Assembly: GCF_000014265.1 (NCBI RefSeq) | Contig: NC_008312.1 | Span: 3,480,001 to 3,512,000, forward strand | From: Trichodesmium erythraeum IMS101 | GTDB taxonomy: Bacteria > Cyanobacteriota > Cyanobacteriia > Cyanobacteriales > Microcoleaceae | Direction: 5' to 3' | DNA length: 32,000 nt | In this document: in pieces, positions 1 to 30,800 of the stretch | How positions within the stretch are numbered: the stretch's first letter is position 1 | Layout of the letters: every line of letters starts with the position of its first letter | Program-made: the position numbers and the translations under genes | The notes under the pieces: generated by a model | Databases searched by the model: none | Told to the model about the DNA's origin: nothing | The model's input: only the letters and a program-made list of their open reading frames with translations

Positions 1-319
1 CAAAATTTTGGTTTTCTGAAAAAATTTTTTTTAGTAAAAAAATAAGAGTAGAAAGTTGTGAATATGTTTGGTAAAGTTCTTCAATTAATGGATAGTCCTC
101 ACTAACAATTTTAACAAAATCAACAATAAGTTCTGTATTATTTAGCTCAATGATTAAATTAATCAACCTTGTATGATAGGTATCTCCTTTAATTTTATTA
201 TAAAAATTAGCTCCAAATTTCTCTGGATATTCAGAAAATATACTTGTCAGTTTATCCTCACTTAATACCTTTTCAATCTCTTCACGAAATTTGATTCTTT
301 GCTTATCAGTAAATTTCAT
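1..319 (-). CDS. Partial CDS (5' end only; continues past the left window edge). Its N-terminus is a diverged seventh copy of the ~83-aa helical adaptor-like module, fused to unknown downstream sequence
   Basis: The ATG at 317-319 has the same TTG-CAA-ATG context and the same 287-bp register as the five genes to its right. My hand translation is MKFTDKQRIKFREEIEKVLSEDKLTSIFSEYPEKFGANFYNKIKGDTYHTRLINLIIELNNTELIVDFVKIVSEDYPLIEELYQTYSQLSTLIFLLKKIFSENQNF. This frame has no stop down to base 2, whereas the other copies stop after YHNFAQDL. It is probably absent from the ORF track because it is open-ended. Confidence 0.5.
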   Translation of the reverse strand, partial: MKFTDKQRIKFREEIEKVLSEDKLTSIFSEYPEKFGANFYNKIKGDTYHTRLINLIIELNNTELIVDFVKIVSEDYPLIEELYQTYSQLSTLIFLLKKIFSENQNF

Positions 320-354
320 TTGCAATGTACTTACATTACTATTTTATCTACTAT

Positions 355-606
355 TTATAAATCTTGAGCAAAATTATGATACTCATACCTAACAACTTTA
401 ATAAAATCAAAAATAAGTTCTCTATTATTTAGCTCAATGATTAAATTAATCAACCTTGTACGATAGTCACCTCCTGGAATTTGATTATAAAAATTAGCTC
501 CAAATTTCTCTGGATATTCAGAAAATATACTTGTCAGTTTATCCTCACTTAATACCCTTTCAATCTCTTCACGAAATTTGATTCTTTGCTTATCAGTAAA
601 TTTCAT
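355..606 (-). CDS. Free-standing helical adaptor-like module, array copy 1 (83 aa from ATG, 85 aa from the TTG at 612); variant FGAN...PGGD
   Basis: ORF track 355..612. An ATG at 604-606 lies two codons inside the TTG start. The protein is near-identical to the last ~80 aa of the CHAT protein at 1790..3208. The heptad-like helical sequence resembles effector-associated/death-like adaptor domains (pattern recognition only). Confidence 0.75.
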   Translation of the reverse strand: MKFTDKQRIKFREEIERVLSEDKLTSIFSEYPEKFGANFYNQIPGGDYRTRLINLIIELNNRELIFDFIKVVRYEYHNFAQDL

Positions 607-641
607 TTGCAATGTACTTACATTACTATTTTATCTACTAT

Positions 642-893
642 TTATAAATCTTGAGCAAAATTATGATACTCATACCTAACAACTTTAATAAAATCAAAAA
701 TAAGTTCTCTATTATTTAGCTCAATGATTAAATTAATCAACCTTGTACGATAGTTATCTCCAGAAATTTGATTATAAAAATTATCTCCAAATTTCTCTGG
801 ATATTCAGAAAATATACTTGTCAGTTTATCCTCACTTAATACCCTTTCAATCTCTTCACGAAATTTGATTCTTTGCTTATCAGTAAATTTCAT
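642..893 (-). CDS. Free-standing helical adaptor-like module, array copy 2; variant FGDN...SGDN
   Basis: ORF track 642..899, exactly 287 bp from copy 1. The ORF is intact and differs from its neighbours only in the loop patch at 753-764. Confidence 0.75.
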   Translation of the reverse strand: MKFTDKQRIKFREEIERVLSEDKLTSIFSEYPEKFGDNFYNQISGDNYRTRLINLIIELNNRELIFDFIKVVRYEYHNFAQDL

Positions 894-928
894 TTGCAAT
901 GTACTTACATTACTATTTTATCTACTAT

Positions 929-1180
929 TTATAAATCTTGAGCAAAATTATGATACTCATACCTAACAACTTTAATAAAATCAAAAATAAGTTCTCTATT
1001 ATTTAGCTCAATGATTAAATTAATCAACCTTGTACGATAGTCACCTCCTGGAATTTGATTATAAAAATTATCTCCAAATTTCTCTGGATATTCAGAAAAT
1101 ATACTTGTCAGTTTATCCTCACTTAATACCCTTTCAATCTCTTCACGAAATTTGATTCTTTGCTTATCAGTAAATTTCAT
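929..1180 (-). CDS. Free-standing helical adaptor-like module, array copy 3; variant FGDN...PGGD (same protein as copy 4 and as the CHAT C-terminus over the shared region)
   Basis: ORF track 929..1186, in 287-bp register, ORF intact. Confidence 0.75.
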   Translation of the reverse strand: MKFTDKQRIKFREEIERVLSEDKLTSIFSEYPEKFGDNFYNQIPGGDYRTRLINLIIELNNRELIFDFIKVVRYEYHNFAQDL

Positions 1181-1215
1181 TTGCAATGTACTTACATTAC
1201 TATTTTATCTACTAT

Positions 1216-1467
1216 TTATAAATCTTGAGCAAAATTATGATACTCATACCTAACAACTTTAATAAAATCAAAAATAAGTTCTCTATTATTGAGCTCAATG
1301 ATTAAATTAATCAACCTTGTACGATAGTCACCTCCTGGAATTTGATTATAAAAATTATCTCCAAATTTCTCTGGATATTCAGAAAATATACTTGTCAGTT
1401 TATCCTCACTTAATACCCTTTCAATCTCTTCACGAAATTTGATTCTTTGCTTATCAGTAAATTTCAT
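1216..1467 (-). CDS. Free-standing helical adaptor-like module, array copy 4; variant FGDN...PGGD
   Basis: ORF track 1216..1473, in 287-bp register. It carries one synonymous Leu change (CTA to CTC, base 1291) that it shares with copy 5. Confidence 0.75.
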   Translation of the reverse strand: MKFTDKQRIKFREEIERVLSEDKLTSIFSEYPEKFGDNFYNQIPGGDYRTRLINLIIELNNRELIFDFIKVVRYEYHNFAQDL

Positions 1468-1502
1468 TTGCAATGTACTTACATTACTATTTTATCTACT
1501 AT

Positions 1503-1754
1503 TTATAAATCTTGAGCAAAATTATGATACTCATACCTAACAACTTTAATAAAATCAAAAATAAGTTCTCTATTATTGAGCTCAATGATTAAATTAATCA
1601 ACCTTGTACGATAGTTATTTCCAGAAATTTGATTATAAAAATTATCTCCAAATTTCTCTGGATATTCAGAAAATATACTTGTCAGTTTATCCTCACTTAA
1701 TACCCTTTCAATCTCTTCACGAAATTTGATTCTTTGCTTATCAGTAAATTTCAT
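1503..1754 (-). CDS. Free-standing helical adaptor-like module, array copy 5; variant FGDN...SGNN
   Basis: ORF track 1503..1760, in 287-bp register. Its loop patch is at 1614-1625. Confidence 0.75.
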   Translation of the reverse strand: MKFTDKQRIKFREEIERVLSEDKLTSIFSEYPEKFGDNFYNQISGNNYRTRLINLIIELNNRELIFDFIKVVRYEYHNFAQDL

Positions 1755-1789
1755 TTGCAATGTACTTACATTACTATTTTATCTACTAT

Positions 1790-3193
1790 TTATAAATCTT
1801 GAGCAAAATTATGATACTCATACCTAACAACTTTAATAAAATCAAAAATAAGTTCTCTATTATTTAGCTCAATGATTAAATTAATCAACCTTGTACGATA
1901 GTCACCTCCTGGAATTTGATTATAAAAATTATCTCCAAATTTCTCTGGATATTCAGAAAATATACTTGTCAGTTTATCCTCACTTAATACCCTTTCAATC
2001 TCTTCACGAAATTTTCTTCTTTGTTCCCCCGTTAAACTCAAGAAACCATTTTTTTTCTGAGTTATCTCCATAGATTCTTTGGCAAATAAATAACCATCTA
2101 AAGCATTCATAAACACAACAGGAATTGCAAAATCTCTTGCCTCATAACCCTTCTCAATACGCAACTTAAACCGAGCCTTCTGTACCGCCATCTCAACAGA
2201 ATTACCATCTATTATTTTTGAATAAAACTCCTTCACAAAAATAATCGCCGTTTGATTAGAAACCTTATATTGCATAGCTATAACCACCGGAATTCCCTCA
2301 AGCATTAAGCGAGAAGCCAGACTACTAAAAGCATTAGTTTCAGATTGTTTTCCAGTTTCACAAGCTTGTAAAATCACAACTTTAGGTTGATGACCAGTAA
2401 ACAATTGACAAAACATTTTAGCATCTTTCCAATCAGCTTCACCAAACTCATTAACAAAAGCAACCTGTCCTAAATCTTCTCCATTTTTCTCAACTAATTG
2501 ACCGTGACCAATAAAATGAAAAATATCCGGTTTCTCAGTTTCTAATCTTTCTACAATACTATAGAAATCTAGAGAATTCATAACAGGTAAAAATTTAACT
2601 TGCTCCTGTTTAGTATCTATACTTTTTAAGTATTTATGTACCTCATAATATTCCACATCACTTAATCCAGAATCAGCCGTCGGTTTCGAGACAACTAAAG
2701 CAATTTTTAACTGTTCATCCTGATTAATTTTAATAGATAATTTATTTGATTCTTCTAATTGATATCTACGACGGTAAAAACTTAATTTACGATTAGTAGC
2801 GAAATAAATTTGACCTTGATTATATTTCTCAGGTAAACACATTAACTCCCAAGGATAAGCTACAACTTCCGGCATAGCTTCCTCATTTATTTCTAAAATA
2901 ATTCCCAAATTTGCATCCTGTTGTTTGAGAATATCTTGATAGTATGCCAAAAAATATTCTCTTAACTGAGCATCAAACAAAGCCTCAAACAAAGCTTCTC
3001 CCACCTTAGTAATTTGTTCACCTTTCAAATTAGTAGGAGCTTTAATAATTTCTCTAATCTTATCGTTAATTTTGTCAAGATTTAACTTACCTATTAACTG
3101 CTCTTTAGTAGCTAACTGAGGAGTTAATTTTATGAGTTTAACCGTATTTTCATTAGAAACAATAACATTACAAAAACATTGATTCATCGTCAT
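1790..3193 (-). CDS. CHAT-domain (caspase-fold, clan CD-like) cysteine protease with a C-terminal helical adaptor-like module (about aa 392-472, nt 1793-2035)
   Basis: ORF track 1790..3208 starts at a TTG. ATGs at 3191-3193 and 3185-3187 are more likely starts. The His motif DIFHFIGHG has its GHG His codon at 2504-2506. The Cys motif VVILQACETG has its Cys codon at 2360-2362. Both match the CHAT/caspase catalytic dyad as I remember it. The C-terminal sequence EQRRKFREEIERVLSEDK...YHNFAQDL equals the downstream small genes. Confidence 0.85.
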   Translation of the reverse strand: MTMNQCFCNVIVSNENTVKLIKLTPQLATKEQLIGKLNLDKINDKIREIIKAPTNLKGEQITKVGEALFEALFDAQLREYFLAYYQDILKQQDANLGIILEINEEAMPEVVAYPWELMCLPEKYNQGQIYFATNRKLSFYRRRYQLEESNKLSIKINQDEQLKIALVVSKPTADSGLSDVEYYEVHKYLKSIDTKQEQVKFLPVMNSLDFYSIVERLETEKPDIFHFIGHGQLVEKNGEDLGQVAFVNEFGEADWKDAKMFCQLFTGHQPKVVILQACETGKQSETNAFSSLASRLMLEGIPVVIAMQYKVSNQTAIIFVKEFYSKIIDGNSVEMAVQKARFKLRIEKGYEARDFAIPVVFMNALDGYLFAKESMEITQKKNGFLSLTGEQRRKFREEIERVLSEDKLTSIFSEYPEKFGDNFYNQIPGGDYRTRLINLIIELNNRELIFDFIKVVRYEYHNFAQDL

Positions 3194-3224
3194 AAAAATT
3201 AAGAACAATCAAAAAGTAAATAAT

Positions 3225-4160
3225 CTACAGTTTTGGTAAGCTAATTTGTTTTTCCCACTGACTAGTCCATTCTTCCTTTATCCCAACCGCAAAACTCTTA
3301 GCTGCTTTATCTTTACTCCCAAACAAATTTTTTAAATGACCTGGTAAACTTGATATTACATGAGTTAATTCACCATTCAACCAATCAATGTTAGGTTCAA
3401 TCCAAGCATGACCAATTAAATCAATAAACTCCCATCCCTTAGGAACCTTAAAAATAACGCTAAATTCTACAGTAGACTTATCCTGAATTTCTGGTTTTTC
3501 AAGCCGCCATTCACACCAAGAATTATTTTCCCCATGAGCAGAGATATTAAACTTACCAAATCGATAATTTAAACTATCAAAAACAATAAAAGTTTTAAAT
3601 TTATTTTTAGCTCTTAAATCAACTTTTAATTGATCATAATTAGGAAGATTAGCTATTTTCATTAACTCAGAACTATCACCTCCAACTCCCACATCCAAGT
3701 TAGCATCTAATCCTAAATTAAAGTTAACTCCTGCACTTAATATTGTTTGCCATTTACTATCTGGAATAATACGATGAACTATTGGCTCCTCTTTTCCTTG
3801 AGCACCAAAATCAAGCCGACATTCTAACTTTGAAATTAAAACACTTGGTTGAGGTCTTAGATCAATACTCACAACCATAGAATAGAAATCAAACCGCTTC
3901 ATTAACTGTTTAACTTCGTAATTTAACTCTATTCCTTCTGCTTCAAAACCTTTTGCAGTAAGAGGAATTAATCTACTATCAGGATTACCAAAAGTAACAG
4001 TAGTTTCCTTCAATCTTTTAACCGCAGTTGCTCCTCTTTTTAACTCTTGAGCTTCCCCTCCCCCTAACTCATTTTCCTGGCTTTTTACTTTTTCAAATAA
4101 ATCATTAAGTAAATCTTCTGCCTTCTCAAAATTAGGTAGATTCAATTTCTGATTTGTCAT
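3225..4160 (-). CDS. Uncharacterised 311-aa protein with a charged helical N-terminus followed by a beta-rich body; first gene of the CHAT cluster
   Basis: ORF track, ATG at 4158-4160. It stops 31 nt upstream of the CHAT ATG on the same strand. I recognise no family motif. I see no N-terminal signal peptide or TM segment. Confidence 0.7.
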   Translation of the reverse strand: MTNQKLNLPNFEKAEDLLNDLFEKVKSQENELGGGEAQELKRGATAVKRLKETTVTFGNPDSRLIPLTAKGFEAEGIELNYEVKQLMKRFDFYSMVVSIDLRPQPSVLISKLECRLDFGAQGKEEPIVHRIIPDSKWQTILSAGVNFNLGLDANLDVGVGGDSSELMKIANLPNYDQLKVDLRAKNKFKTFIVFDSLNYRFGKFNISAHGENNSWCEWRLEKPEIQDKSTVEFSVIFKVPKGWEFIDLIGHAWIEPNIDWLNGELTHVISSLPGHLKNLFGSKDKAAKSFAVGIKEEWTSQWEKQISLPKL

Positions 4161-4275
4161 TAATTTTTTGGGAAATACTTTTTAGGAAATAAGGTTTGAC
4201 TTAGACGTCTCCAAAAACTAAGATTTAACAATATGTTTAAAAGACTTTCTCATTAATTATTCAGAGATGTCTATT

Positions 4276-4303
4276 GTAGAGATATTTAATGAAACATCTC
4301 TAC
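4276..4303. other. Perfect 8-bp hairpin (GTAGAGAT / ATCTCTAC, 12-nt loop) between the 73-aa gene and the CHAT cluster
   Basis: Read directly: 4276-4283 pairs with 4296-4303. An alternative pairing is AGAGATGT (4264-4271) with ACATCTCT (4295-4302). There is no clear U-tract on the minus strand, so a terminator role is uncertain. Confidence 0.3.
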
Positions 4304-6879: not shown

Positions 6880-7341
6880 TCACTCAGCTGCCATAGCTCT
6901 AATGATGTCACCACGGGTTAGTATACCAATAACTTTGCCATTTTCATCTACCACTGGCAAACGATGAATACTACGCTCGTTCATAAGTTTAGCTGTTGCC
7001 GAAAGTCGTTCTTGTGATCTAGTAGTCAAAGGATTTTTAGTCATTATCTCCTCAACAGTTTCTCCTAAAGCTTTATGAATTTCTTTTTCATAACGCCCTG
7101 GATTTTCTAAGAAGATAATACTATCTAGCAGCATAATATAAGGTGGAGGGGTAACTCCACTCTCTTGCCACATTAAATCTGTTTCTGATACTATACCAAC
7201 TAACTTTCCGTTGTCATCGACTACAGGAAGACCACTAATGTGTTTTTCTGCCAAGATCTTAATTGCTTCTTTCAAAGGCGTTTTCGGTTTGACGGTGATG
7301 GGATTAGAACTCATAACCTCTGATACAATTTTGTTGGTCAT
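6880..7341 (-). CDS. CBS domain-pair protein (153 aa)
   Basis: There are two CBS-type units: VMSSNPITV...ISGLPVVDDNGKLVGIVSETDL and IMTKNPLTT...IHRLPVVDENGKVIGILTRGDII. Confidence 0.9.
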   Translation of the reverse strand: MTNKIVSEVMSSNPITVKPKTPLKEAIKILAEKHISGLPVVDDNGKLVGIVSETDLMWQESGVTPPPYIMLLDSIIFLENPGRYEKEIHKALGETVEEIMTKNPLTTRSQERLSATAKLMNERSIHRLPVVDENGKVIGILTRGDIIRAMAAE

Positions 7342-7532
7342 ACTTACCTCTGATTTTTTTTTCTGAATAATTGAGCAATGATTATAGTTATATGATCAAA
7401 ATTTTGATTTTGACTTTTGCTTTTTGCTTCTATTAAGGTCAGAAAAGAAAGTGCAATTTACTATAGTATTGCACCTTGATTAAATCAAACCTTTATTTTT
7501 TGTAATTAATATATATTAAGAATTTATGACTA

Positions 7533-7862
7533 ATGTTAACTCATAAAGGCCAAAAGCAGAAAATTAATTCTGGGGATCGCTATGTATTTGTTTGTCAAAA
7601 TCATTCTTGTTTGCGCCAAAACTCTCAAGAAGTTCTCAAGGCCTTTAAAGCTGAGACCGAAAACTTGGTTGGGGTCTATATTGAGTCCAGTAGTTGTCTA
7701 GGCCAATGTAGTATTAGCCCTACAGTAAGAATTATCCCGGATGAAATTTGGTACTACCGAGTCCAACCCGAGCATGTCCCATTAATAGTTACACAACATT
7801 TCGTGGGCAATAAACCTGTAGATGATCTGCTCAACCCCAGAATTCATCCTCGTTTTTACTGA
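7533..7862 (+). CDS. Thioredoxin-like [2Fe-2S] ferredoxin family protein
   Basis: It has paired Cys motifs, C-x4-C (VCQNHSC) and C-x3-C (CLGQC), separated by about 40 aa. This is typical of the (2Fe-2S) ferredoxin / NuoE-like fold. Confidence 0.75.
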   Translation: MLTHKGQKQKINSGDRYVFVCQNHSCLRQNSQEVLKAFKAETENLVGVYIESSSCLGQCSISPTVRIIPDEIWYYRVQPEHVPLIVTQHFVGNKPVDDLLNPRIHPRFY

Positions 7863-7892
7863 TTAGAAAATAATAAAAGCCTATTGCGTATC

Positions 7893-8798
7893 CTAGAACC
7901 TTTTAACTGTTGAGAAAACCCATTCCTGAATTAACTTATTAACAAGATCAGGAGCTTCGTCATGGGGACAATGACCTGCTTTTAAGAAGTATTCTGTTAA
8001 CTGAGGATAATATTTACGAAATTGGACACTCCGGCTTCTTGTATTGATCCAAGGGTCAGCTTCTCCCGAAAGCATAAGTAGAGGAGACTCTAAGTCACCC
8101 AACAACTCATCTACTTTCTTACCAGATGGTGCCTTAAAAATAGAAGCAAAGACTTGAGCTGCACCGGGGTCACAAGAAGGTCGATATATATCTTCTATTA
8201 ATTGGTCTGTAATAGCACTTTGATCCAAATAAACTTTTTGTAATATTTTTCTAATAGTGCTACGTCGTCGGGTCCATTGAAATAATAAAAAACTAGGTAG
8301 GGTTTGCAGAAATAACCACTTTGTGATCCGAGAAATAAATTGTCTAAATATTGGGGGCTTAGGAGTAGGTTGAGATTCGCTAAATGGTCCAGCACTGTTA
8401 AGAAGTATCAAACCTGCTGTAGAAGTTGGATATTCAGCTGCTACGCACAATGCTACATAACCTCCAAGAGAATTTCCTACTAAGACTACTGATCTACCTA
8501 TAACTTGGGTAATAAAGTCATTGATCTGTTGTTGCCATAGCTTACCACTATATTGCCAGTTTGGTTTACCTGAACGTCCAAATCCTAATAAGTCAATAGC
8601 CCAAACTTGAAAAAACTCGCTGAGAGCTGCAATATTTTTGCGCCAATGGTCTGTAGAGCCTCCAAAGCCATGTATTAATAGTAAGGGTGGATGGGTAGGG
8701 TTAGACTTACCTGCACATAAGTAGTAGATTTGCTGATTCTTCCATAGCCAATAACTTCCAGGAACTGAAATTGTAGTAGTTATAGATTTAGTCAACAT
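7893..8798 (-). CDS. Alpha/beta-fold hydrolase
   Basis: It has an HG oxyanion motif (LLLIHGFGGS), a nucleophile elbow (GNSLGG) and a C-terminal His (AGHCPHDE). Confidence 0.9.
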   Translation of the reverse strand: MLTKSITTTISVPGSYWLWKNQQIYYLCAGKSNPTHPPLLLIHGFGGSTDHWRKNIAALSEFFQVWAIDLLGFGRSGKPNWQYSGKLWQQQINDFITQVIGRSVVLVGNSLGGYVALCVAAEYPTSTAGLILLNSAGPFSESQPTPKPPIFRQFISRITKWLFLQTLPSFLLFQWTRRRSTIRKILQKVYLDQSAITDQLIEDIYRPSCDPGAAQVFASIFKAPSGKKVDELLGDLESPLLMLSGEADPWINTRSRSVQFRKYYPQLTEYFLKAGHCPHDEAPDLVNKLIQEWVFSTVKRF

Positions 8799-14689: not shown

Positions 14690-16048
14690 ATTTATATTTC
14701 TTAAGTCTACTACTTTTCGCAAAATTTATAGTGTTCCCACAGTTTAATGGTAAGTAGATAATATACATAATATATAATCCTATTTTGCTAATAGTCAAAA
14801 TGATAATTTGCCTGAAGCTATTAATGCATTATCTATGGGAGGTTTGGTTGGCAAGTAATGTTAGGATATAATATCTTTAATTAGATCAATAAAAAAACGA
14901 TATTTGATATAAAATTATGGTTTATAAATAGAATAAATTTAAATAATTGAGTCAATTAATGTTAAAAGTTTGTGTTAATTACCCAGATTTTATCAACAGT
15001 AAAGTTTACATTAGGCAAAGCTTAAATTATGTTAGTTTAACTGCACTGAAAACTATGGGCAATTTCATAATTATTTGCAGCAGTTTACTGGTAAATTTCC
15101 AGACATTTTTGAGGAATATTCACCAAGCAAACTTCAAGATCGTTATTCTGGTGTTGGTAAATTAACATCAAAAAATCTAAATATGGCTAAACATAAATTT
15201 TTTTTCAGTTAATAGTTAGGCGATCGCTATTAAAGGATAATCACGTGCCAAAATCACTAACACCCTGATTTTGAGCATAGAGCATATAAGAGAATTTTTA
15301 CTTATTGGTCATATTTAATTGTTATATTAGACATTTCTATGAGGAGAAATATACAGGGCATTCGGTGGTTTATGAGGTACAGTAGTAACAGTGTTGAAAA
15401 TATTGTTTGAAGTGGTTAGTCTTTAAACAAAAGTACAGTAGAAAATATTATACCAACCATTTTTGCAGTGGTAGTCTGAAACTGATACAAAAAAAATGTT
15501 CTTATGTAAATTTCAGTCTATTAATACTATACTTAGGGCTTTATGAAAAACTATGCATGGGTTCGCCTATAACTCAGAACTCAGGAGTATTTTATCCCCC
15601 CTTCCTCCTCCTGAAAATCCTCTGTTGAAGATAAAAGATAGAAATAGAAAAGTTTTTGATAAATGGTTGAAACTCTAGAGCAGATTTCATCAATGGTGAT
15701 GTAAGGTTTTAACAGGCAATATTATTTTACTACAAAGGTTTGATCATTAATATTTATACAACATAAATTTGGAATTCCCTATAAACTTAGCTTGTTAATA
15801 AGTCGATCAAGTCCTCAGTGATAGGACAACCTGTTTACTTTTTAAAATGAAAAAATATTGGATTAAGAAAGAGGGAAATAAACAAATATCTAAATATTCA
15901 GCTATTATTTATTTTCCCATAATAGCTTATGTGATATTGATTCTAGTTCAACTTTATACTTAATACTTATTATAGTTATGAAAAGTAACTAAGATACCTT
16001 TTAAAATTTTCTATCAACCCATATTAATTTAGTAGATATTAATCATAG

Positions 16049-16810
16049 ATGACTAAACTACCCAATGATATAAATGAGGCAATTGTCCAAGGAATGGAAG
16101 CGACTAAAGCAGCCCTCCAAGATGGTTATACTAGAGTCCAAATTGAGATAGTTGTTCCAGATATAGAACTTCAAGCTCAATCTCTGGCAAAACAATTTAT
16201 CCCTGCTTTGCTCGAAACAAGTACTAAGCTCAAAGTCTTTTTTCCTGACTCGGGAGCAGCAGCTTTAGCTAGACGAGATTGGCAAGATGCCACGTTTAAA
16301 ATAGAAGATCTTGGTACAAGTAGATCTCCTGTTGACAAAAAAGTTGAACCTGAAGACCAATGTTTCTTATTAATTGCTCCTTCTGCTATAGAAGTGGCCC
16401 AGACTGAAAAATTGTCTAATCTTGCTGGCGATCGTCCAGTTATTATGTTAATCCCGAAATTGGAGGATGTTTCTATTGTGGGAATTGGTTATGCAGCACG
16501 CCAACTTCGAGAAAGGTTTATCAAAACTATTGAATCTTGCTATTATATTAGGTCTCTTGGTGGGGCAGCACTATATCGTTGTTATCCTTCTCCCTGGCAA
16601 GTTTGGCTTGAAGAAAACGGCCAGTATAAGTTAATTGCTGAACAACCAGAAAAACCAGTAGGAGATGAAGTAGATATGATTTTAGCTAAAGCTACTGGTA
16701 CAGCTAAAACAGATAACTCTATTTCATCTTCTCAGACTATGAATAGTTCTCCAAAAAAGAAAAGTTTATTAACCGAAATTCAAAAATTTTTCCGTGCTTT
16801 GAGTAACTAA
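16049..16810 (+). CDS. Conserved cyanobacterial/plastid-type protein, DUF1995-like
   Basis: ORF track. The N-terminal pattern (LP..I.EAI.Q..EATKAAL.DGYTR.Q.E...P) matches my memory of DUF1995. The family assignment is from memory only. Confidence 0.7.
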   Translation: MTKLPNDINEAIVQGMEATKAALQDGYTRVQIEIVVPDIELQAQSLAKQFIPALLETSTKLKVFFPDSGAAALARRDWQDATFKIEDLGTSRSPVDKKVEPEDQCFLLIAPSAIEVAQTEKLSNLAGDRPVIMLIPKLEDVSIVGIGYAARQLRERFIKTIESCYYIRSLGGAALYRCYPSPWQVWLEENGQYKLIAEQPEKPVGDEVDMILAKATGTAKTDNSISSSQTMNSSPKKKSLLTEIQKFFRALSN

Positions 16811-16825
16811 TTTTCTATAAAGACC

Positions 16826-16865
16826 GAAGGTATTGATGATATTTATGTAGTCTGAAAATACCTTC
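16826..16865 (+). terminator. Hairpin downstream of the DUF1995-like gene (9-bp stem GAAGGTATT / AATACCTTC)
   Basis: 16826-16834 pairs with 16857-16865, leaving a 22-nt loop. It starts 16 nt after the stop codon. No U-tract follows, so support is weak. Confidence 0.3.
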
Positions 16866-17027
16866 CAAAATCATGTGATATACTATCAATAATTAAGTAT
16901 AGTATTAAAATATCTTTACTATACTTGAATGAAAACTTAAACTTAGTATGATGTAAAATTTTTTCTTTTGCCTACTTTAATAAGCAAGGAGATCAGGGTA
17001 TGATAGTCAAACCTATTAGAAGCAAAA

Positions 17028-17783
17028 ATGAACCAGAGACGTATTATTATTGGCGATATACATGGGAATTATGATGGCCTAATCGCTTTATTAGATATGG
17101 TAGCTCCTGGCATAGATGATATGGTATATTTTCTAGGAGATTTAATTGATAGAGGTCCGAAAAGTTCTCAAGTAGTAGAATTCGTCAGAAATAGTCCTTA
17201 TCAGTGTGTCATGGGAAACCACGAACACATGATGATTCAAGCTCTTTCAGATACAGAACTCAAGCATGAGGCATGGCCACATTGGTATAATAGTGGTGGT
17301 CTTGAAACTGTGGAGAGTTATCGAAAAACAGGAGCAATGCCTTATGATGATTTAGAGTGGATGCGATCGCTACCTCTATATCTAGACTTAGGAAATATTT
17401 GGTTAGTTCATGGAGGAATTAATCCTAAACTACCTATTGAAAGGCAAACTTCCCATGAATGTTGTTGGATTCGCCATGAGTTTCATTCTGTGAAAAAACC
17501 TTACTTTTCTGATAAATTAATTATTATAGGTCATACTATAACTTTTACTTTTGATGATGTTGAACCCGGAGAATTAGTTTGTGGACAAGGTTGGTTAGGT
17601 ATTGATACTGGTGCATATCATTCTCACAGTGGGTGGCTCACAGGGTTAGATGCTGATAATAATATTATTTATCAGGTTAATATTAAGGATAATCAAACTA
17701 GGAAAGTACCCTTAAATGAACTTGTGAAATCTTATAAATCTAGGAAAAAATTTTTTCAAAATTTATCAAAATTTTCTCAATAA
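17028..17783 (+). CDS. Metallophosphoesterase / PPP-family Ser-Thr phosphatase (PrpA/ApaH-like)
   Basis: The canonical motifs GDIHG, GDLIDRG and GNHE are present in the correct order and spacing. Confidence 0.9.
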   Translation: MNQRRIIIGDIHGNYDGLIALLDMVAPGIDDMVYFLGDLIDRGPKSSQVVEFVRNSPYQCVMGNHEHMMIQALSDTELKHEAWPHWYNSGGLETVESYRKTGAMPYDDLEWMRSLPLYLDLGNIWLVHGGINPKLPIERQTSHECCWIRHEFHSVKKPYFSDKLIIIGHTITFTFDDVEPGELVCGQGWLGIDTGAYHSHSGWLTGLDADNNIIYQVNIKDNQTRKVPLNELVKSYKSRKKFFQNLSKFSQ

Positions 17784-18005
17784 TCAAACAAAACTAAGAA
17801 AAGTTTAAAGTGAAAAAATATTGGTTATAATAGCCTGAAGCCATCAAATAAAGTCAAAATATTGAAGATAAAAGATTTAAATTTTATTGAGTTGCCAACA
17901 TTTTTTTGTAGTCATATAAATAAAAGCTTTTTCCATAATTTTGAATCTTATTTATTCTGGCTTCACTTCTACTTTATCTACTCATATAGTTGAAATTAAT
18001 GTTGA

Positions 18006-18710
18006 ATGGAAATAGGAAAAAAACAACAATTAATTACTTATTTAAGTCAATTTATAACTCCAGCTCGTCGGGAAAAAATCTTATCAGTTTTACAGCAACG
18101 AACCCGCGACATTACTGTTATTTTAGAAGATATTTATCAGCCCCACAATGCTAGTGCAGTCCTGAGAAGTTGTGACAGTTTTGGTGTACAAGATGTGCAC
18201 ATTGTAGAGAATAAAAATATTTTTACAATCACTCAGAGTGTAACTATTGGTTCAGATCGTTGGTTAACATTATATCGTTATAATGAACAAAGTATAAACA
18301 ATACAGAAGAATGTTTAAAGAGATTAAAAAATGAGGGCTATGTAATAGCAGCAACAACTCCCTATAAAGAGCATATAACCATTGAGGAATTATCTGTAAA
18401 TACAAAAGTAGCGTTAATGTTTGGTTCAGAAATAAATGGGTTATCAGAATATGCTAAAAACAATGCAGATGTATCGGTCAAAATTCCCATGGTGGGGTTT
18501 AGTGAAAGTTTTAATATTTCTGTTAGCGCCGCTCTATGTTTATATAATTTGATGAGTCGCCTCAAAAAAGAGCATAATAATTGGAAATTAACGGAGACAG
18601 AAAAATTAGATTTGGAATTAAATTGGTTGCAGAAATCTATTAAAGGCGGGGAACTTATTGAGAAGAAATTTTTCAGAGATATTTATCAGACTACAGGCGG
18701 TGGGGAGTAG
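18006..18710 (+). CDS. trmH: SpoU/TrmH-family RNA 2'-O-methyltransferase (likely tRNA Gm18 methyltransferase)
   Basis: The SPOUT motifs present are VILEDIYQPHNASAVLRSCDSFG, LMFGSEINGLS and IPMVGFSESFNISVSAA. Confidence 0.85.
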   Translation: MEIGKKQQLITYLSQFITPARREKILSVLQQRTRDITVILEDIYQPHNASAVLRSCDSFGVQDVHIVENKNIFTITQSVTIGSDRWLTLYRYNEQSINNTEECLKRLKNEGYVIAATTPYKEHITIEELSVNTKVALMFGSEINGLSEYAKNNADVSVKIPMVGFSESFNISVSAALCLYNLMSRLKKEHNNWKLTETEKLDLELNWLQKSIKGGELIEKKFFRDIYQTTGGGE

Positions 18711-18748
18711 GAAATATAGGGAGATAGAAAACAATATTTAGTCAGGTA

Positions 18749-18796
18749 GGGTGCGTATTTACGGCTTAAATTTAAGCTGTATTTCTCTCACGCACC
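18749..18796. terminator. Palindromic element GTAGGGTGCGT...ACGCACCATTT, copy 2, between the convergent trmH and M48 genes; probable bidirectional terminator
   Basis: GGTGCGT (18750-18756) pairs with ACGCACC (18790-18796). The loop contains the perfect palindrome GCTTAAATTTAAGC. Confidence 0.4.
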
Positions 18797-18816
18797 ATTT
18801 TAGCTGTGTTAGTCTG

Positions 18817-19671
18817 CTAGGGCAGCAACCTATTTAAAATTACCTGATAACGTCTATCATCTAACCCATCACCATTATAGGCAAATTCAGGATTAATCAT
18901 TTGTTTCATCTGAGAAATTCGCGTCGATGTTGCTGGGTGAGTGCTAAGAAAAGATGGCGGCGAAGATTTTTTCAACAATTTTTGCATAAATGTAATTGCA
19001 GCATATTGAGCATATCCTGCTTTTCCTAATGTTTCAATTCCAATTTGATCAGCTTCAAATTCTGCCTGGCGGCTTTTGGGGCGACGTAATGCTAATTCTA
19101 CCGCTATTTGAACTGCAACACTATTATCTACACCTGCTGCAGTCGCTAAACCTTGTGCTAATAATGTTTGACGTAATTGTTTTAGTGCATGGCGATCGGC
19201 AATATGAGCAATTTCATGAGCAATAACACTAGCTAATTCTGCTTCATTATCGGCAGCTTTCATTAAACCAGTATTGATGTAAACAAAGCCTCCCATAGTA
19301 GCAAAAGCATTTATACTATCATCCTCTACTACCTGAAAAGTATAGGGAATATCTGAGCGGGGACTTGCTAAAACTAATCTTTGCCCAATTCTATCAATAT
19401 ATTTCTTAGCTGCGCGATCGCGATAAAGTTTAATATTTCCACTTTCCAATAACTGTTGATTAATTTGTTTACCTAGTTCAACTTCTTGAGTTTTAGACAG
19501 GTTAGAAATTGAGATCATTTGAATACTGCGAAAAATTAATTCTCTCCAGGGAATAGCTTGGCTGGGAAGTACTGTACCTGTCCATAAACTAACAGCGACT
19601 ATCACAGATATTAATGGGTATAATATTCTACGATAGGAGGACTGAGAAATCAAAGATAGTTTTTTCAACAT
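18817..19671 (-). CDS. M48-family zinc metalloprotease with an N-terminal signal/anchor
   Basis: It has an HEXXH motif (AHEIAHIADRH), a hydrophobic N-terminus (ILYPLISVIVAVSLWTGTVL), and a downstream EFEADQIG as the third ligand region. Confidence 0.9.
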   Translation of the reverse strand: MLKKLSLISQSSYRRILYPLISVIVAVSLWTGTVLPSQAIPWRELIFRSIQMISISNLSKTQEVELGKQINQQLLESGNIKLYRDRAAKKYIDRIGQRLVLASPRSDIPYTFQVVEDDSINAFATMGGFVYINTGLMKAADNEAELASVIAHEIAHIADRHALKQLRQTLLAQGLATAAGVDNSVAVQIAVELALRRPKSRQAEFEADQIGIETLGKAGYAQYAAITFMQKLLKKSSPPSFLSTHPATSTRISQMKQMINPEFAYNGDGLDDRRYQVILNRLLP

Positions 19672-20065: not shown

Positions 20066-20350
20066 TGTAAGCATTCAGCTCTTTAGCAGTCAGCTTAAGC
20101 GCTTTTCCTAGACCATTGTGCGCAAAAAAAGATGAAGTTGAGCTGCTGATCTTTTTTATGTCGAACTTTTCATTCTTCTTGGAAGCTCATTATTTTTTCT
20201 AGCTAATTTGGAGCAGTCAGCTTGAGGGCTTTTCCTGAAAAATACGGGAAAAAAAGATAAAGTTGAGCTGCTTATCTTTTCGGTGTCAGACTTTTAATTC
20301 TTCTTACAAGCTAATTCCTCTAGCTGATAACTGATAGCTGAATCCTTACA
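20066..20350. repeat. Element bounded by inverted repeats and containing two 127-bp tandem units (MITE-like or a structured RNA locus)
   Basis: The inverted repeats are TGTAAGCATTCAGC (20066-20079) and GCTGAATCCTTACA (20337-20350), matching at 13 of 14 positions. The tandem units start at 20085 and 20212. A solo left end with a partial unit lies at 19888-19925. Confidence 0.6.
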
Positions 20351-20438
20351 AAATTACTAGAAACATCACAGAGGTTAGTCAACAATAAAATTACCTCAAT
20401 AAATAGTATTTATAAATATAAAATTTAAGTATCAAAAC

Positions 20439-20727
20439 TTTTTTTGATAATTAGTATTAGCTATTAATTGATAGTTTGCTCTGTAGCAATTATTATTAAT
20501 ATATTTAAGGATAATTAAAAGTATTATAAAAAAAATCCCAAGAATTTTTTTTTACTTTAATATGTTTAAAAAAATGAACTTTTTTTTGATAATTAGCATT
20601 GGCTATTAATTGATAGTCTGCTCTGTAGCAATTATTATTAATATATTTAAGGATGATTAAAAGTATTATAAAAAAATCCCAAGAATTTTTTTTTACTATC
20701 CATTTTAATATGTTAAAAAAAATGAAC
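20439..20727. repeat. Tandem duplication of a very AT-rich unit of about 141-148 bp
   Basis: Copy 1 is 20439-20579 and copy 2 is 20580-20727. They are near-identical apart from a few substitutions and a 7-bp insertion (atccatt) in copy 2. Confidence 0.8.
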
Positions 20728-27803: not shown

Positions 27804-30800
27804 GTGTCTAAAGTTGCTACTAAAAATATTACATTCTGGAATACTACTGGTTATAATTATCCAGGATTTGGCAAAACCGTAGAAGTCCCTGATGGCCTAG
27901 GTGGCACAATAAGTATTACTTATAATCAAATTGATTATAATGACCGTAACTGGAAAGCCAAACCAGATGGCAGTGTTCCTGTGACAGAAAATCGCTTCCT
28001 CTCAGGAGAAGTAGGGAATAATTTTAGCTTAACAGGCCAAGTACAAGGCATAACTGCTACTATGCCTCTTATAAGAACTCTAGGAGCTGAAAATAACTAT
28101 TCTGTCACTTTAGATTTTAGTAAATACAAAGCCTCCGCAGGAGGTTCAAAAGCAACTGATGGTGCAACCTCTGGTGACACCTATTTAGCCATATCAAGAT
28201 TTTTTAACGGTAGCAAAACTGGATATACAACCATTAAAGTCACTGCAAGAACTCTCGATGGTAGCGAACTTAACCTAGGTGATTGGAAATTATTCAACAG
28301 TGGAACTCTCGGCCAAGGCAATAATGCTCGGATATTCTTAAATGCAGCTACTCAAATTCTTTCTGGTAAAAACTCTCAAGGCAAACCAGAATTCTGCCCA
28401 ACTCCACCTAACCCAAACTCTTCTCTTGGTAAAGGCACAGGGCTAGGTTTATTTGAGTTAGCAAGTAATCAACGTTATGTATCTATTACTCTTAGCTTTA
28501 AACAAAAAAAAATTACAGGTTCTTTGCCTAATGATTTACACGATATTTATGTTGCTAGCAATACTAGTTCTACAAGTCCAATTGATGTAACTCCTCCACC
28601 GATGGATATAAATCGTGGTTTACAAGTACATTTGCCATTGAATGAAATAGTCAAAAATGCCGAATCAAAAAAAGAAGTAGTTGATATTTCAGGAGCTCAA
28701 GTTAATGGCAAAGTTAATGGTGCAAAAGTTGTCGCCGACTCAAAATTTGGTCATTGTCTAAGTTTTGATGGGGTGGATGACTATCTTGAACTACCAACAG
28801 CAACTATTCCTCAAACAGGGGCAATCACAATTAGTTTTTGGGCTAATGGTGATAACTCTTTACCCAAGGATAATTCCATAATAGCTGCATACGACCAAAG
28901 TAATAACAGGGTGATTAATATTCATTTACCTTGGAATAATAGTTACATTTACTTTGATTGTGGAAATACGGGAAACAGTTATGACAGAATAGAAAAATTA
29001 GCTAAAGCTGCTGATTTTAAAGGGAAATGGACTCACTGGGTATTTACGAAGAATGTTACCACTGGAGAGATGAAGATATATCTCAATGGTGCTTTATGGA
29101 GTAGTGGTAAGGATAAGAGTAAGCAAATAAGTGGCATGACCCTGGTGAAGCTTGGTTCTGGTTATGGATTTTATCATGGTCAAGTTGCTCATCTGCGAAT
29201 TTATGACCGAGTGTTGTCTGCAGAAGAAATTAACGAATGTATGAAGGTGGATGTAACTCCTCCACCGATGGATATAAATCGTGGTTTACAAGTACATTTG
29301 CCATTGAATGAAATAGTCAAAAATGCCAAATCAAAAAAAGAAGTAGTTGATATTTCAGGAGCCCAACTCAATGGCAAAGTTAATGGTGCAAAAGTTGTCG
29401 CCGACTCAAAATTTGGTCATTGTCTAAGTTTTGATGGGGTGGATGACTATCTTGAACTACCAACAGCAACTATTCCTCAAACAGGGGCAATCACAATTAG
29501 TTTTTGGGCTAATGGTGATAACTCTTTACCCAAGGATAATTCCATAATAGCTGCATACGACCAAAGTAATAACAGGGTGATTAATATTCATTTACCTTGG
29601 AATAATAGTTACATTTACTTTGATTGTGGAAATACGGGAAACAGTTATGACAGAATAGAAAAATTAGCTAAAGCTGCTGATTTTAAAGGGAAATGGACTC
29701 ACTGGGTATTTACGAAGAATGTTACCACTGGAGAGATGAAGATATATCTCAATGGTGCTTTATGGAGTAGTGGTAAGGATAAGAGTAAGCAAATAAGTGG
29801 CATGACCCTGGTGAAGCTTGGTTCTGGTTATGGATTTTATCATGGTCAAGTTGCTCATCTGCGAATTTATGACCGAGTGTTGTCTGCAGAAGAAATTAAC
29901 GAATGTATGAAGGTGGATGTAACTCCTCCACCGATGGATATAAATCGTGGTTTACAAGTACATTTGCCATTGAATGAAATAGTCAAAAATGCCAAATCAA
30001 AAAAAGAAGTAGTTGATATTTCAGGAGCCCAACTCAATGGCAAAGTTAATGGTGCAAAAGTTGTCGCCGACTCAAAATTTGGTCATTGTCTAAGTTTTGA
30101 TGGGGCGGATGACTATCTTGAACTACCAACAGCAACTATTCCTCAAACAGGGGCAATCACAATTAGTTTTTGGGCTAATGGTGATAACTCTTTACCCAAG
30201 GATAATTCCATAATAGCTGCATACGACCAAAGTAATAACAGGGTGATTAATATTCATTTACCTTGGAATAATAGTTACATTTACTTTGATTGTGGAAATA
30301 CGGGAAACAGTTATGACAGAATAGAAAAATTAGCTAAAGCTGCTGATTTTAAAGGGAAATGGACTCACTGGGTATTTACGAAGAATGTTACCACTGGAGA
30401 GATGAAGATATATCTCAATGGTGCTTTATGGAGTAGTGGTAAGGATAAGAGTAAGCAAATAAGTGGCATGACCCTGGTGAAGCTTGGTTCTGGTTATGGA
30501 TTTTATCATGGTCAAGTTGCTCATCTGCGAATTTATGACCGAGTGTTGTCTACAGAAGAAATTAACGAATGTATGAAGGTGGATGGTACCGATGCCACAT
30601 CAACTACTGATGAGACTGATACCATATCAACTAATGATGTTACTGATGTCACCCCAACTACTGATGGTACTGATACCACATCAACTACTGATGGGACTGA
30701 TACCACACCAACTACTGGTGGGACTGACACCACACCAACTACTAGTGAGACTGATACCACACCAACTACTGATGGGACTGATACCACATTAACTACTGAT

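Follow-up and report, generated by a model that had tools for sequence, protein, structure and literature searches.

Five EAD6-only genes in a tandem array between the CHAT protease and VMAP genes of a VMAP ternary conflict system in Trichodesmium erythraeum IMS101

The window analysed here is a stretch of 32,000 nucleotides from Trichodesmium erythraeum IMS101 (NC_008312.1, positions 3,480,001 to 3,512,000), and positions given below are those of the window unless another contig is named. At its left edge, on the minus strand, lies the gene cluster Tery_2230 to Tery_2237. This cluster makes up the front part of a VMAP ternary conflict system, its protease arm, and the identity of every cluster component was established in the present analysis. 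The genes follow one another in the order Tery_2237, a gene for a CHAT protease ending in an EAD6 adaptor, five EAD6-only genes, an EAD6-VMAP gene, a MoxR AAA+ gene and a gene for a vWA-FGE-sulfatase protein. The MoxR and vWA genes are located just left of the window, which covers the front of the system.

Components of the conflict system

Exact-sequence look-up assigned the locus tag Tery_2237 to a 311-aa protein, Tery_2231 to Tery_2235 to the five small EAD6-only genes, Tery_2230 to a 507-aa protein (VMAP), Tery_2229 to a 381-aa AAA ATPase (MoxR) and Tery_2228 to a 1196-aa 'DUF323' protein (the vWA component). An earlier reading made from the sequence alone (hereafter, the sequence-only reading) had described a co-directional minus-strand cluster consisting of a 311-aa open reading frame (ORF), a CHAT ORF, five 83-aa ORFs and an ORF at the left edge, and all of its sequence statements hold.

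The CHAT (caspase-fold) protease with its C-terminal EAD6 (positions 1790–3208, minus strand) was recognized by both Pfam and PADLOC. The gene sits between Tery_2235 and Tery_2237, and its name, Tery_2236, was taken from a proteome supplement. Its start is uncertain and could be a TTG at 3208 (472 aa), an ATG at 3193 (467 aa) or an ATG at 3187 (465 aa). The ORF matched Pfam CHAT (PF12770) with an E-value of 7.8e-22 and PADLOC SAVED_CHAT with an E-value of 1e-11. The His-Cys dyad, which the sequence-only reading had described as intact, was found where expected, with the His codon of the GHG motif at 2504–2506 and the Cys codon of the QAC motif at 2360–2362.

The left-edge ORF of the window is the N-terminus of Tery_2230 (106 of 106 residues identical). 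The 5' end of this gene (positions 1–319, minus strand) encodes an N-terminal EAD6 and the start of VMAP-M12, and the gene runs on leftward. The full protein (P0025) matched VMAP-M12 (E-value 2.3e-92), VMAP-C (E-value 3.5e-15) and, weakly, EAD6 in Pfam. Tery_2229 carries AAA domains, and its N-terminal motifs AWLFFYGDG and PPPWRKF, which were read directly, fit WxhapG and PsWRxa, the N-terminal motifs given as specific to the MoxR proteins of VMAP ternary systems (Kaur et al. 2020, PMC7159879). Tery_2228 matched NCBIfam SAV_2336_NTERM above the cut-off (E-value 1.9e-114) and has two FGE-sulfatase domains. A Pfam search with this protein gave no match to a vWA model; a DxSxS-type motif, VVDQSDSM, is visible by eye. 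The order VMAP, MoxR, vWA holds in all assemblies of the locus that extend to these genes (L001, L002, L003 and L006), and the tags Tery_2230, Tery_2229 and Tery_2228 are consecutive in IMS101. An NTPase had been predicted to lie left of the window, and it does: the MoxR AAA+ protein follows VMAP, and the vWA protein with its FGE-sulfatase domains comes next.

Because the VMAP domains, the MoxR motifs, the SAV_2336_NTERM and FGE-sulfatase matches and the gene order all agree, the cluster is a VMAP ternary system as defined by Kaur et al. The systems described in that work (Kaur, Burroughs, Iyer, Aravind 2020, eLife, PMC7159879) have the same core genes in the same order VMAP-MoxR-vWA, the same tripartite VMAP (EAD, VMAP-M12 and VMAP-C), the same aromatic motifs at the MoxR N-terminus, a vWA protein with a SAV_2336-type N-terminus and an FGE-sulfatase C-terminus, and likewise an adjoining caspase-superfamily peptidase that bears the same EAD as VMAP. 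The Trichodesmium locus differs in having five extra EAD-alone genes; the text of that paper describes neither genes of this kind nor tandem EAD arrays. It also differs in that the 311-aa family adjoins CHAT, here and in 48 related loci, in place of an alpha/beta-hydrolase. An alpha/beta-hydrolase was reported always to neighbour caspase domains in VMAP ternary systems (Kaur et al. 2020, PMC7159879), and Tery_2237 replaces it in this pairing.

An alpha/beta-hydrolase gene is present elsewhere in the window (7893–8798, minus strand), 3.7 kb upstream of the cluster and on the same strand, with UPF0426, HEAT-repeat, CBS and thioredoxin-like genes standing between the two. It is probably unrelated to the caspase/hydrolase pairing of Kaur et al. 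because it is kept at that position even in contigs without a CHAT gene. As a separate observation, Tery_2228 (L001 positions 15258–18848) ends in two FGE-sulfatase (DUF323) domains, the type of domain that is targeted by the diversity-generating retroelement of T. erythraeum, for which 12 targets were reported (PMC4143802).

The EAD6 adaptor and the 287-bp array

On its profile matches, the repeated module is most probably the known adaptor EAD6 (Pfam PF19958) and not a new domain. Free copy 5 gave a full-length match to Pfam EAD6 with an E-value of 9.3e-5 and 23 bits, under the 27-bit cut-off, and free copy 4, which has a different loop, gave no Pfam EAD6 match at an E-value of 0.01. The profile was matched by 13 of the 16 aligned family members (best E-value 4.3e-7), and an Okeania paralogue, at 33 bits, passed the curated 27-bit cut-off. 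These matches support the sequence-only reading, which had taken the module for an adaptor that couples conflict-system proteins by homotypic contact. In addition, a Coleofasciculus relative with 57% identity carries the NCBI name 'EAD6 domain-containing conflict system protein'. Paired EAD6 domains, one at the CHAT C-terminus and one at the VMAP N-terminus, were found in IMS101 and in eight related loci. The layout given by Kaur et al. (2020, PMC7159879) is one EAD on VMAP and the same EAD on the enzyme of an adjoining gene, and EAD6 is listed there among the EADs that recruit 'signalling' peptidases.

An AlphaFold2 model of EAD6 (83 aa, free gene 4; pLDDT 92.6) is all-alpha and non-enzymatic, with five helices. 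The most conserved motif of the family, FG.NFYN.I.G..Y, forms the long loop between helices 3 and 4 in this model. A Death/CARD fold, which had been proposed for the module, received no statistical support: a Foldseek search of PDB with the model gave no match with an E-value below 2, and the top TM-scores, which were those of the Apaf-1 CARD (0.53, E-value 6.5), a DR6 death-domain-like chain (0.46) and the CASP8 DED (0.44), all came with E-values above 6. On the Foldseek result this fold was set aside as unsupported, though the module may yet have it; the model shows five helices, and the Death fold is a six-helix bundle. When the EAD6 profile was compared with PDB sequences, a weak match to annexin V repeat 2 was seen (E-value 6e-4, 44 positions), which Foldseek does not echo. 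A wide search for EAD6 relatives yielded 44 representatives among 1.84 billion proteins; about 10 of these are short, and some of the short ones are fragments. One representative, P0170 (1048 aa), which is probably eukaryotic, has six weak EAD6-like stretches (E-value 5e-6) and a huge Asp/Gly/Glu-rich tract; the resemblance could be due to chance or to very remote kinship with a repeat protein.

The tandem array (positions 68–2076, minus strand) consists of seven units of 287 bp, each made up of a 35-nt spacer and a 252-nt EAD6 coding segment. Tandem Repeats Finder reported a period of 287 with 6.7 copies and 97% matches over 102–2023, and a repeat search found seven copies at exactly 287-nt spacing; the two programs thus agree with the earlier description of five free-standing 83-aa genes at that exact interval. 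A pattern of two consecutive free copies matched four times in the window and not once in 100 shuffles. Unit 1 is the EAD6 at the CHAT C-terminus (1790–2041, minus strand), the donor of the 3' part of the free copies, with which it agrees from codon 10 onward but for one synonymous site. It is followed on the same strand by free gene 5 (Tery_2235, 1503–1754, loop SGNN), free gene 4 (Tery_2234, 1216–1467, loop PGGD, with CTC at a synonymous site), free gene 3 (Tery_2233, 929–1180, loop PGGD), free gene 2 (Tery_2232, 642–893, loop SGDN, which is the state of most relatives) and free gene 1 (Tery_2231, 355–606, with the change D37A, common to the adjoining VMAP EAD6). The free ORFs encode 83 aa (85 aa if read from an upstream TTG), and their stop codons begin at 1503, 1216, 929, 642 and 355. 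In the seven-unit alignment, the 35-nt spacers at 320–354, 607–641, 894–928, 1181–1215, 1468–1502 and 1755–1789 are identical.

The seven 287-nt units were aligned in coding orientation. In the free units, the 35-nt spacer, the ATG and the first ten codons (MKFTDKQRIK) are identical to the VMAP gene and unlike the CHAT linker; codon 10 and everything after it, stop codon included, match the CHAT tail at all but a few sites. The VMAP gene agrees almost completely with the free copies over the 35 nt upstream of EAD6 and over its first ~140 nt, and the sequence then diverges. The VMAP N-terminal EAD6 and a free copy share 62 of 76 residues. Each free gene is a chimera in which the 5' end of the VMAP gene is joined to the 3' end of the CHAT gene. 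The sequence-only reading had held that the free genes were copied from the protease's own C-terminus, which is correct for the 3' part and the stop, whereas the 5' part was derived from the VMAP gene. It had also noted a diverged seventh copy; this copy does start the left-edge ORF but it is the original second EAD6 of the system, not a decayed member of the array.

A join of VMAP 5' and CHAT 3' sequence is the signature expected of unequal crossover between the adjoining CHAT-tail and VMAP EAD6 segments, and the array period is equal to the distance between these segments (252 + 35 nt). Two other haplotypes, L007 and L031, show the same 5'/3' chimera pattern and the same 287-nt spacing. In L007, a Tara contig of the T. 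erythraeum type, the VMAP EAD6 is 57% identical to the free copy and the switch occurs at an identity patch in codons 10–16. In L031, which represents a more diverged Tara lineage, the free copy matches its own CHAT tail. We infer that the first free copy was made by one unequal crossover within the short identity patch of codons 10–16, that amplification to five copies came about by more unequal crossovers, now between perfect 287-bp repeats, and that these later crossovers partly converted the VMAP EAD6 of IMS101. The reciprocal product of such a crossover would be a CHAT-VMAP fusion. An 889-aa CHAT-VMAP fusion ORF was found in L003, a Logan assembly, where it could equally be the result of repeat collapse.

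The five free copies and the CHAT tail differ from one another in only three ways. The first is D37A, in the copy adjoining the VMAP gene and common to VMAP. The second is a group of five nucleotide changes within 12 nt, which turn the loop PGGD into SGDN or SGNN, and the third is a single synonymous CTA/CTC site. SGDN is the loop state in most relatives, so both this common form and the derived form are present in the array. The amino-acid differences all lie between the invariant residues of the FG.NFYN.I.G..Y motif, and such a placing in the modelled loop is compatible with a binding surface; the loop changes may represent only two or three events, and no statistical conclusion was drawn from them. 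An origin of the loop variants from the diversity-generating retroelement was rejected on inspection of the alignment, in which the changes show no restriction to adenines and span a tract of just 12 nt.

A two-copy locus, with EAD6 only at the CHAT tail and the VMAP N-terminus, was found in several Okeania, three Coleofasciculus and one Dolichospermum, as well as in a cyanobacterial metagenome-assembled genome (MAG) from a tar biofilm and in Trichodesmium MAG_R04. The two-copy state is ancestral. EAD6-only genes or EAD-only fusion genes recur at the same position in at least three other lineages. One of them is the Tara Trichodesmium lineage L031, which has one free EAD6 copy. In Okeania sp. 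SIO3C4 (L025), a free copy that is interrupted by an N-gap stands after the CHAT gene, and a 286-aa ORF (L025 positions 3425–4285, plus strand) consists of EAD6, a partial VMAP-M12, the CHAT linker and a second EAD6. This ORF was created by an 897-bp duplication and lies upstream of an intact VMAP, which is followed by MoxR and a vWA protein with Response_reg, Peptidase_C14 and FGE-sulfatase matches. The same junctions were found, free of gaps, in a second MAG contig (L026). The 897-bp duplication is an independent route to an adaptor-only protein at the orthologous locus. In L027 and L028, CHAT-EAD6 is followed by a 346-aa protein (L027 positions 6907–7947, plus strand; also in L028) with EAD1 at its N-terminus (E-value 5e-16) and EAD6 at its C-terminus, then by an 84-aa free EAD6 and by an EAD6 start at the contig end. 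By analogy with ASC, which has a pyrin and a CARD domain, the 346-aa two-adaptor protein could bridge EAD1- and EAD6-bearing components. The 84-aa free copy has 13% nucleotide divergence from its neighbours and contains no stop or frameshift, and mosaic variants of it were found in other samples (P0131, P0132 and P0134).

The type of system, the adaptor family and the coupling principle are known, the base arrangement of an effector-EAD beside an EAD-VMAP being the published 'EAD-coupling principle'. The literature searched contains neither an amplified adaptor-only array nor a description of its chimeric origin or recurrence. The texts of Kaur et al. 2020 (PMC7159879) and Kaur et al. 2021 make no mention of EAD-only genes or tandem EAD arrays, in accordance with the sequence-only reading, which knew of no described bacterial system with amplified adaptor-only genes.

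Tery_2237, a conserved partner of CHAT proteases

Directly upstream of the protease gene, Tery_2237 (3225–4160, minus strand) encodes a 311-aa protein of an unannotated family, a conserved upstream partner of CHAT proteases. It gave no match in Pfam, NCBIfam or PADLOC. A word-indexed search yielded 46 homologues with 38–99% identity. The family is found in filamentous cyanobacteria and in Chloroflexi (Ardenticatenaceae, Promineifilaceae and Ca. Leptofilum), with homologues of 34–86% identity. In a scan of its loci, limited to one genome per species (56 loci, L032–L087), a CHAT gene was found to start no more than 400 nt downstream of the family member, on the same strand, in 48 cases, and 4 of the remaining 8 loci were cut off by contig ends. 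The partner CHAT proteins stand alone, are linked to VMAP through EAD6, are fused directly to VMAP or carry long C-terminal regions as fusions. In Planktothrix, the neighbouring genes of the pair converge on each other, and there is no VMAP system nearby. The 311-aa protein had been called unknown, and with respect to annotated families this is correct; however, in terms of gene neighbourhood, it is a conserved CHAT partner. The 311-aa family is unnamed in Pfam, NCBIfam and PADLOC.

Its position beside CHAT in most of these loci follows the pattern that Evans et al. 2025 (PMC12642450) described for protease-effector modules. In that study, the modules comprise bacterial gasdermin, Pepco, EACC1, MBL and alpha/beta-hydrolase. 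They resemble the present case in that a small or medium-sized non-enzymatic protein is located directly upstream of a caspase-like protease, with varied sensors, and two of the effector families there are protease-licensed pore formers. The 311-aa family differs from them in matching none in Pfam or PADLOC and in its predicted fold, which is weakly hemolysin/leukocidin-like and not that of gasdermin or Pepco. The assignment of Tery_2237 as a gasdermin, alpha/beta-hydrolase, Pepco, EACC1 or CATASP was rejected in view of the lack of any Pfam or PADLOC match and of an invariant catalytic triad; no conserved catalytic triad was found in the family.

An AlphaFold2 model of Tery_2237, built with 33 sequences, had a pTM of 0.77 and a low-confidence stretch at residues 144–201. 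Almost all of the top 50 matches in a Foldseek search of PDB were alpha-hemolysin, leukocidin, NetF, Epx, CytK and related beta-barrel toxins, and no gasdermin was among these 50. E-values ranged from 2.8e-6 to 4e-4 with a probability of ~1, yet TM-scores were only 0.25–0.33 and identities 5–12%. The strongest amphipathic-beta segments of the protein, at residues 146–157 and 179–185, score more than two standard deviations above the mean and fall within the low-confidence stretch, which also contains the conserved sequence GV.LNLGLDANLDVGVGVD. Like the alpha-hemolysin and leukocidin toxins, Tery_2237 is predicted to have a beta-sandwich core and two amphipathic beta segments that resemble a pre-stem hairpin. 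It differs from these toxins in having extra N-terminal helices and neither a sequence-profile match nor a signal peptide, and it would need to exert its effect from within the cell. With moderate to low confidence, we consider Tery_2237 a candidate protease-licensed pore former.

Possible role of the free EAD6 genes

We see about even chances that the whole of the following picture is right: the cluster is the protease arm of a VMAP ternary system, the EAD6 array arose by unequal crossover, and free EAD6 acts as a competitor that raises the threshold of activation. As the published model implies, the core formed by the vWA/FGE-sulfatase protein, MoxR and VMAP would respond to an invader, and the CHAT protease would then dock to VMAP through an EAD6-EAD6 contact and become activated. 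The protease might cleave Tery_2237, which would lead to membrane damage and cell death. Free EAD6 inherits the translation start of VMAP and is probably made from the same transcript. Because it would possess the interface of both partners and lack the protease as well as the VMAP body, it would compete for the EAD6 docking sites and thereby raise the activation threshold, and this competition could take place at up to five-fold gene dosage. Our best guess, which is drawn by analogy, is that free EAD6 is a competitive decoy that sets the threshold.

In humans, the CARD-only genes CARD16, CARD17 and CARD18 arose by duplication beside CASP1, and their products are inhibitory. The free EAD6 genes are likewise adaptor-only ORFs which, according to the unit alignment, were derived by duplication from the adjoining caspase and partner genes, and their products could interfere with homotypic recruitment. 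On the other hand, the EAD6 fold is unrelated to that of CARD or its relation is unproven, the EAD6 copies are chimeric, near-identical tandem units in one probable operon, and the inhibitory activity belongs to the human proteins, being an analogy for the EAD6-only genes. The only experimental bacterial precedent for an adaptor-only protein is a phage CARD-only protein that lowers effector cleavage and defence of type II bacterial gasdermin systems (Wein et al., PMC10312443). It is also a free-standing adaptor of a bacterial protease-based suicide system, but it is encoded by the attacker, as a single gene, and has a CARD-like fold, whereas the Trichodesmium copies are EAD6 domains encoded by the system itself.

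With regard to expression, all five free ORFs are intact, and each is preceded by VMAP's own upstream 35 nt and start. No terminator-like site was found inside the array on the minus strand. Since the 35-nt spacers are identical to the spacer upstream of VMAP and no such internal site was present, it is plausible that the cluster is a single operon and that the free ORFs are translated from a common transcript. A promoter scan showed no enrichment over shuffles and was uninformative. Tery_2237 protein was detected in 24 of 24 samples of one IMS101 proteome study (PMC4931248), and in a second IMS101 proteome (PMC6411698) Tery_2237 and Tery_2228 were present at 0–3 spectral counts, with Tery_2230 and Tery_2236 also listed in the table. 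EAD6 peptides of the free copies would be shared with Tery_2236. Copy-specific loop peptides of the free ORFs are …NQISGNNYR, …NQISGDNYR and …FGANFYNQIPGGDYR; the copy-specific peptides of the array are FGANFYNQIPGGDYR, FGDNFYNQISGDNYR and FGDNFYNQISGNNYR, and the N-terminal peptide of the free copies is MKFTDK/QR. An iron transcriptome supplement contained no entries for these locus tags, and none of the tags was found in the main text of the papers searched.

Several observations weigh against a role of the free copies as decoys. The binding of EAD6 to EAD6 is a published prediction and not an experimental result (Kaur et al., PMC7159879), and the hemolysin-like call for Tery_2237 is weak by its TM-scores and is accompanied by no sequence-level PDB match. 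The remaining observations speak at the same time for a neutral origin, which we rate only a little below the decoy, that is, nearly as likely, though still as a tentative explanation. Under this explanation, the EAD6 direct repeats invite unequal crossover, and the EAD6-only ORFs persist without a role in a genome that is polyploid, full of repeats and has a large non-coding share, homogenized by gene conversion that is driven by the selected flanking copies. The free copies are 94–100% identical, with all differences at a few sites, so that intact ORFs would be expected even without selection. Tery_2231 to Tery_2235 were absent among the entries listed in the two proteome tables (PMC4931248 and PMC6411698). 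Most related loci have no free EAD6 copy. In addition, sister lineages have lost the protease or broken VMAP: in thiebautii-like Trichodesmium contigs (L013–L020), the 311-aa gene is deleted and CHAT is a frameshifted pseudogene, the EAD6 tail of which is called as a 90-aa ORF, while VMAP and MoxR are intact, which means that the protease arm was lost in this clade. In Okeania KiyG1, VMAP is split into three ORFs. The protein-coding share of the IMS101 genome is only 60% (PMC4143802).

No sign of selection peculiar to the free copies was seen in the substitution patterns. The pairwise ratio of non-synonymous to synonymous substitution (dN/dS) was 0.5–0.9 between free copies and their neighbours and 0.6–1.9 between anchored CHAT tails of different lineages. 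With these small counts it is alike for the two and does not separate free from anchored copies; as EAD6 evolves fast everywhere, dN/dS cannot tell functional from idle copies. The CHAT-tail EAD6 of IMS101 (1790–2041) differs from that of L031 (2455–2706) by 23 non-synonymous and 3 synonymous changes (dN/dS ~1.9), which, small as the counts are, hints at diversifying selection on the adaptor. Against a neutral origin, the five ORFs are all open with the start context of VMAP, and EAD6-only ORFs occur in at least three other lineages, one of them open in spite of ~13% divergence and accompanied by mosaic variants. Moreover, if translated, a protein that is nothing other than the interface, at five-fold dosage, is unlikely to be inert in a system which depends on that interface.

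A positive role, in which free EAD6 co-assembles into the scaffold as an extender of a filament or hub and helps to cluster and activate CHAT, appears rather improbable. Kaur et al. did propose polymeric, Death-domain-like EAD assemblies, and adaptors of a bridging type occur in related loci (the 346-aa EAD1-...-EAD6 and the 286-aa EAD6-VMAP-M12-EAD6 proteins). However, a single-domain protein is unable to bridge two different partners, and the adaptor-only proteins that have been tested are inhibitory, namely CARD16, CARD17 and CARD18, as is generally known, and the phage CARD-only protein (PMC10312443).

A mistake in the reference assembly, be it in the array itself or in its copy number, is unlikely, indeed the least credible of these explanations. 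Other assemblies of the locus do disagree with it and with one another: L001 has no free copy and a chimeric VMAP N-terminus, L002 (GBRTRLIN201 MAG) has a 100-N gap inside the array, L003 contains the CHAT-VMAP fusion, L004 and L005 end in the repeat, and L006–L008 have one free copy. However, all of these assemblies are short-read and collapse or break at the array, so that copy number outside IMS101 is not readable from them; short-read assemblers usually disagree in this way at near-identical tandem repeats, and the behaviour is as expected if the repeat is true. The IMS101 genome is finished (7,750,108 bp), 4 of the 5 free units have a unique combination of variants (free gene 3 differs from free gene 4 at one synonymous site only), RefSeq contains four distinct 83-aa proteins, and free-copy ORFs complete with both junctions are present in the ALOHA_ZT_67 MAG as well as in Tara and ENA assemblies made independently. 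When JGI metagenome contigs were scanned for the exact pattern, no instance of two or more consecutive free copies came up, and none of a single free copy either; as even the single copy was unseen, this collection lacks the T. erythraeum locus and the scan was uninformative.

Returning to free EAD6 as a decoy, a bolder version appears doubtful to us, namely that the EAD6-only array is a host-encoded, copy-number-variable rheostat for protease recruitment and for release of a hemolysin-like pore former. If this were true, unequal crossover between the 287-bp units would shift the dose of free adaptor, filaments or strains would differ in their suicide threshold, and the direct CHAT-VMAP fusion, as the reciprocal product, would be the hair-trigger state. 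With the array, a multicellular, polyploid cyanobacterium would then provide the first counterpart in bacteria to CARD-only or pyrin-only regulators, and a defined locus would be linked to Trichodesmium cell death.

VMAP ternary systems are widespread in multicellular bacteria and are known from predictions, EAD-EAD coupling being still a prediction. The Trichodesmium locus is a natural dosage experiment, as the same interface occurs at one, two or seven copies, with the enzyme attached or not. If the free copies inhibit, then bacteria and animals would have come independently to damp caspase-type pathways with adaptor-only proteins. The 311-aa family offers a concrete candidate for proteolytically licensed killing alongside gasdermin, Pepco and EACC1, and the cluster provides a specific gene set with which to address an old question, that of caspase-like activity and the collapse of Trichodesmium blooms.

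Away from the cluster, a 1374-aa ORF (window positions 27804–31928, plus strand) has three Laminin_G_3 (concanavalin-like) domains. Within it, at 30582–31648, a 27-nt tandem repeat present in 39.5 copies encodes a tract of 9-aa repeats. The intergenic region 20085–20697 contains two adjoining tandem duplications, one of 125 nt (1.8 copies, 80% matches) and one of 142 nt (1.8 copies, 95% matches).

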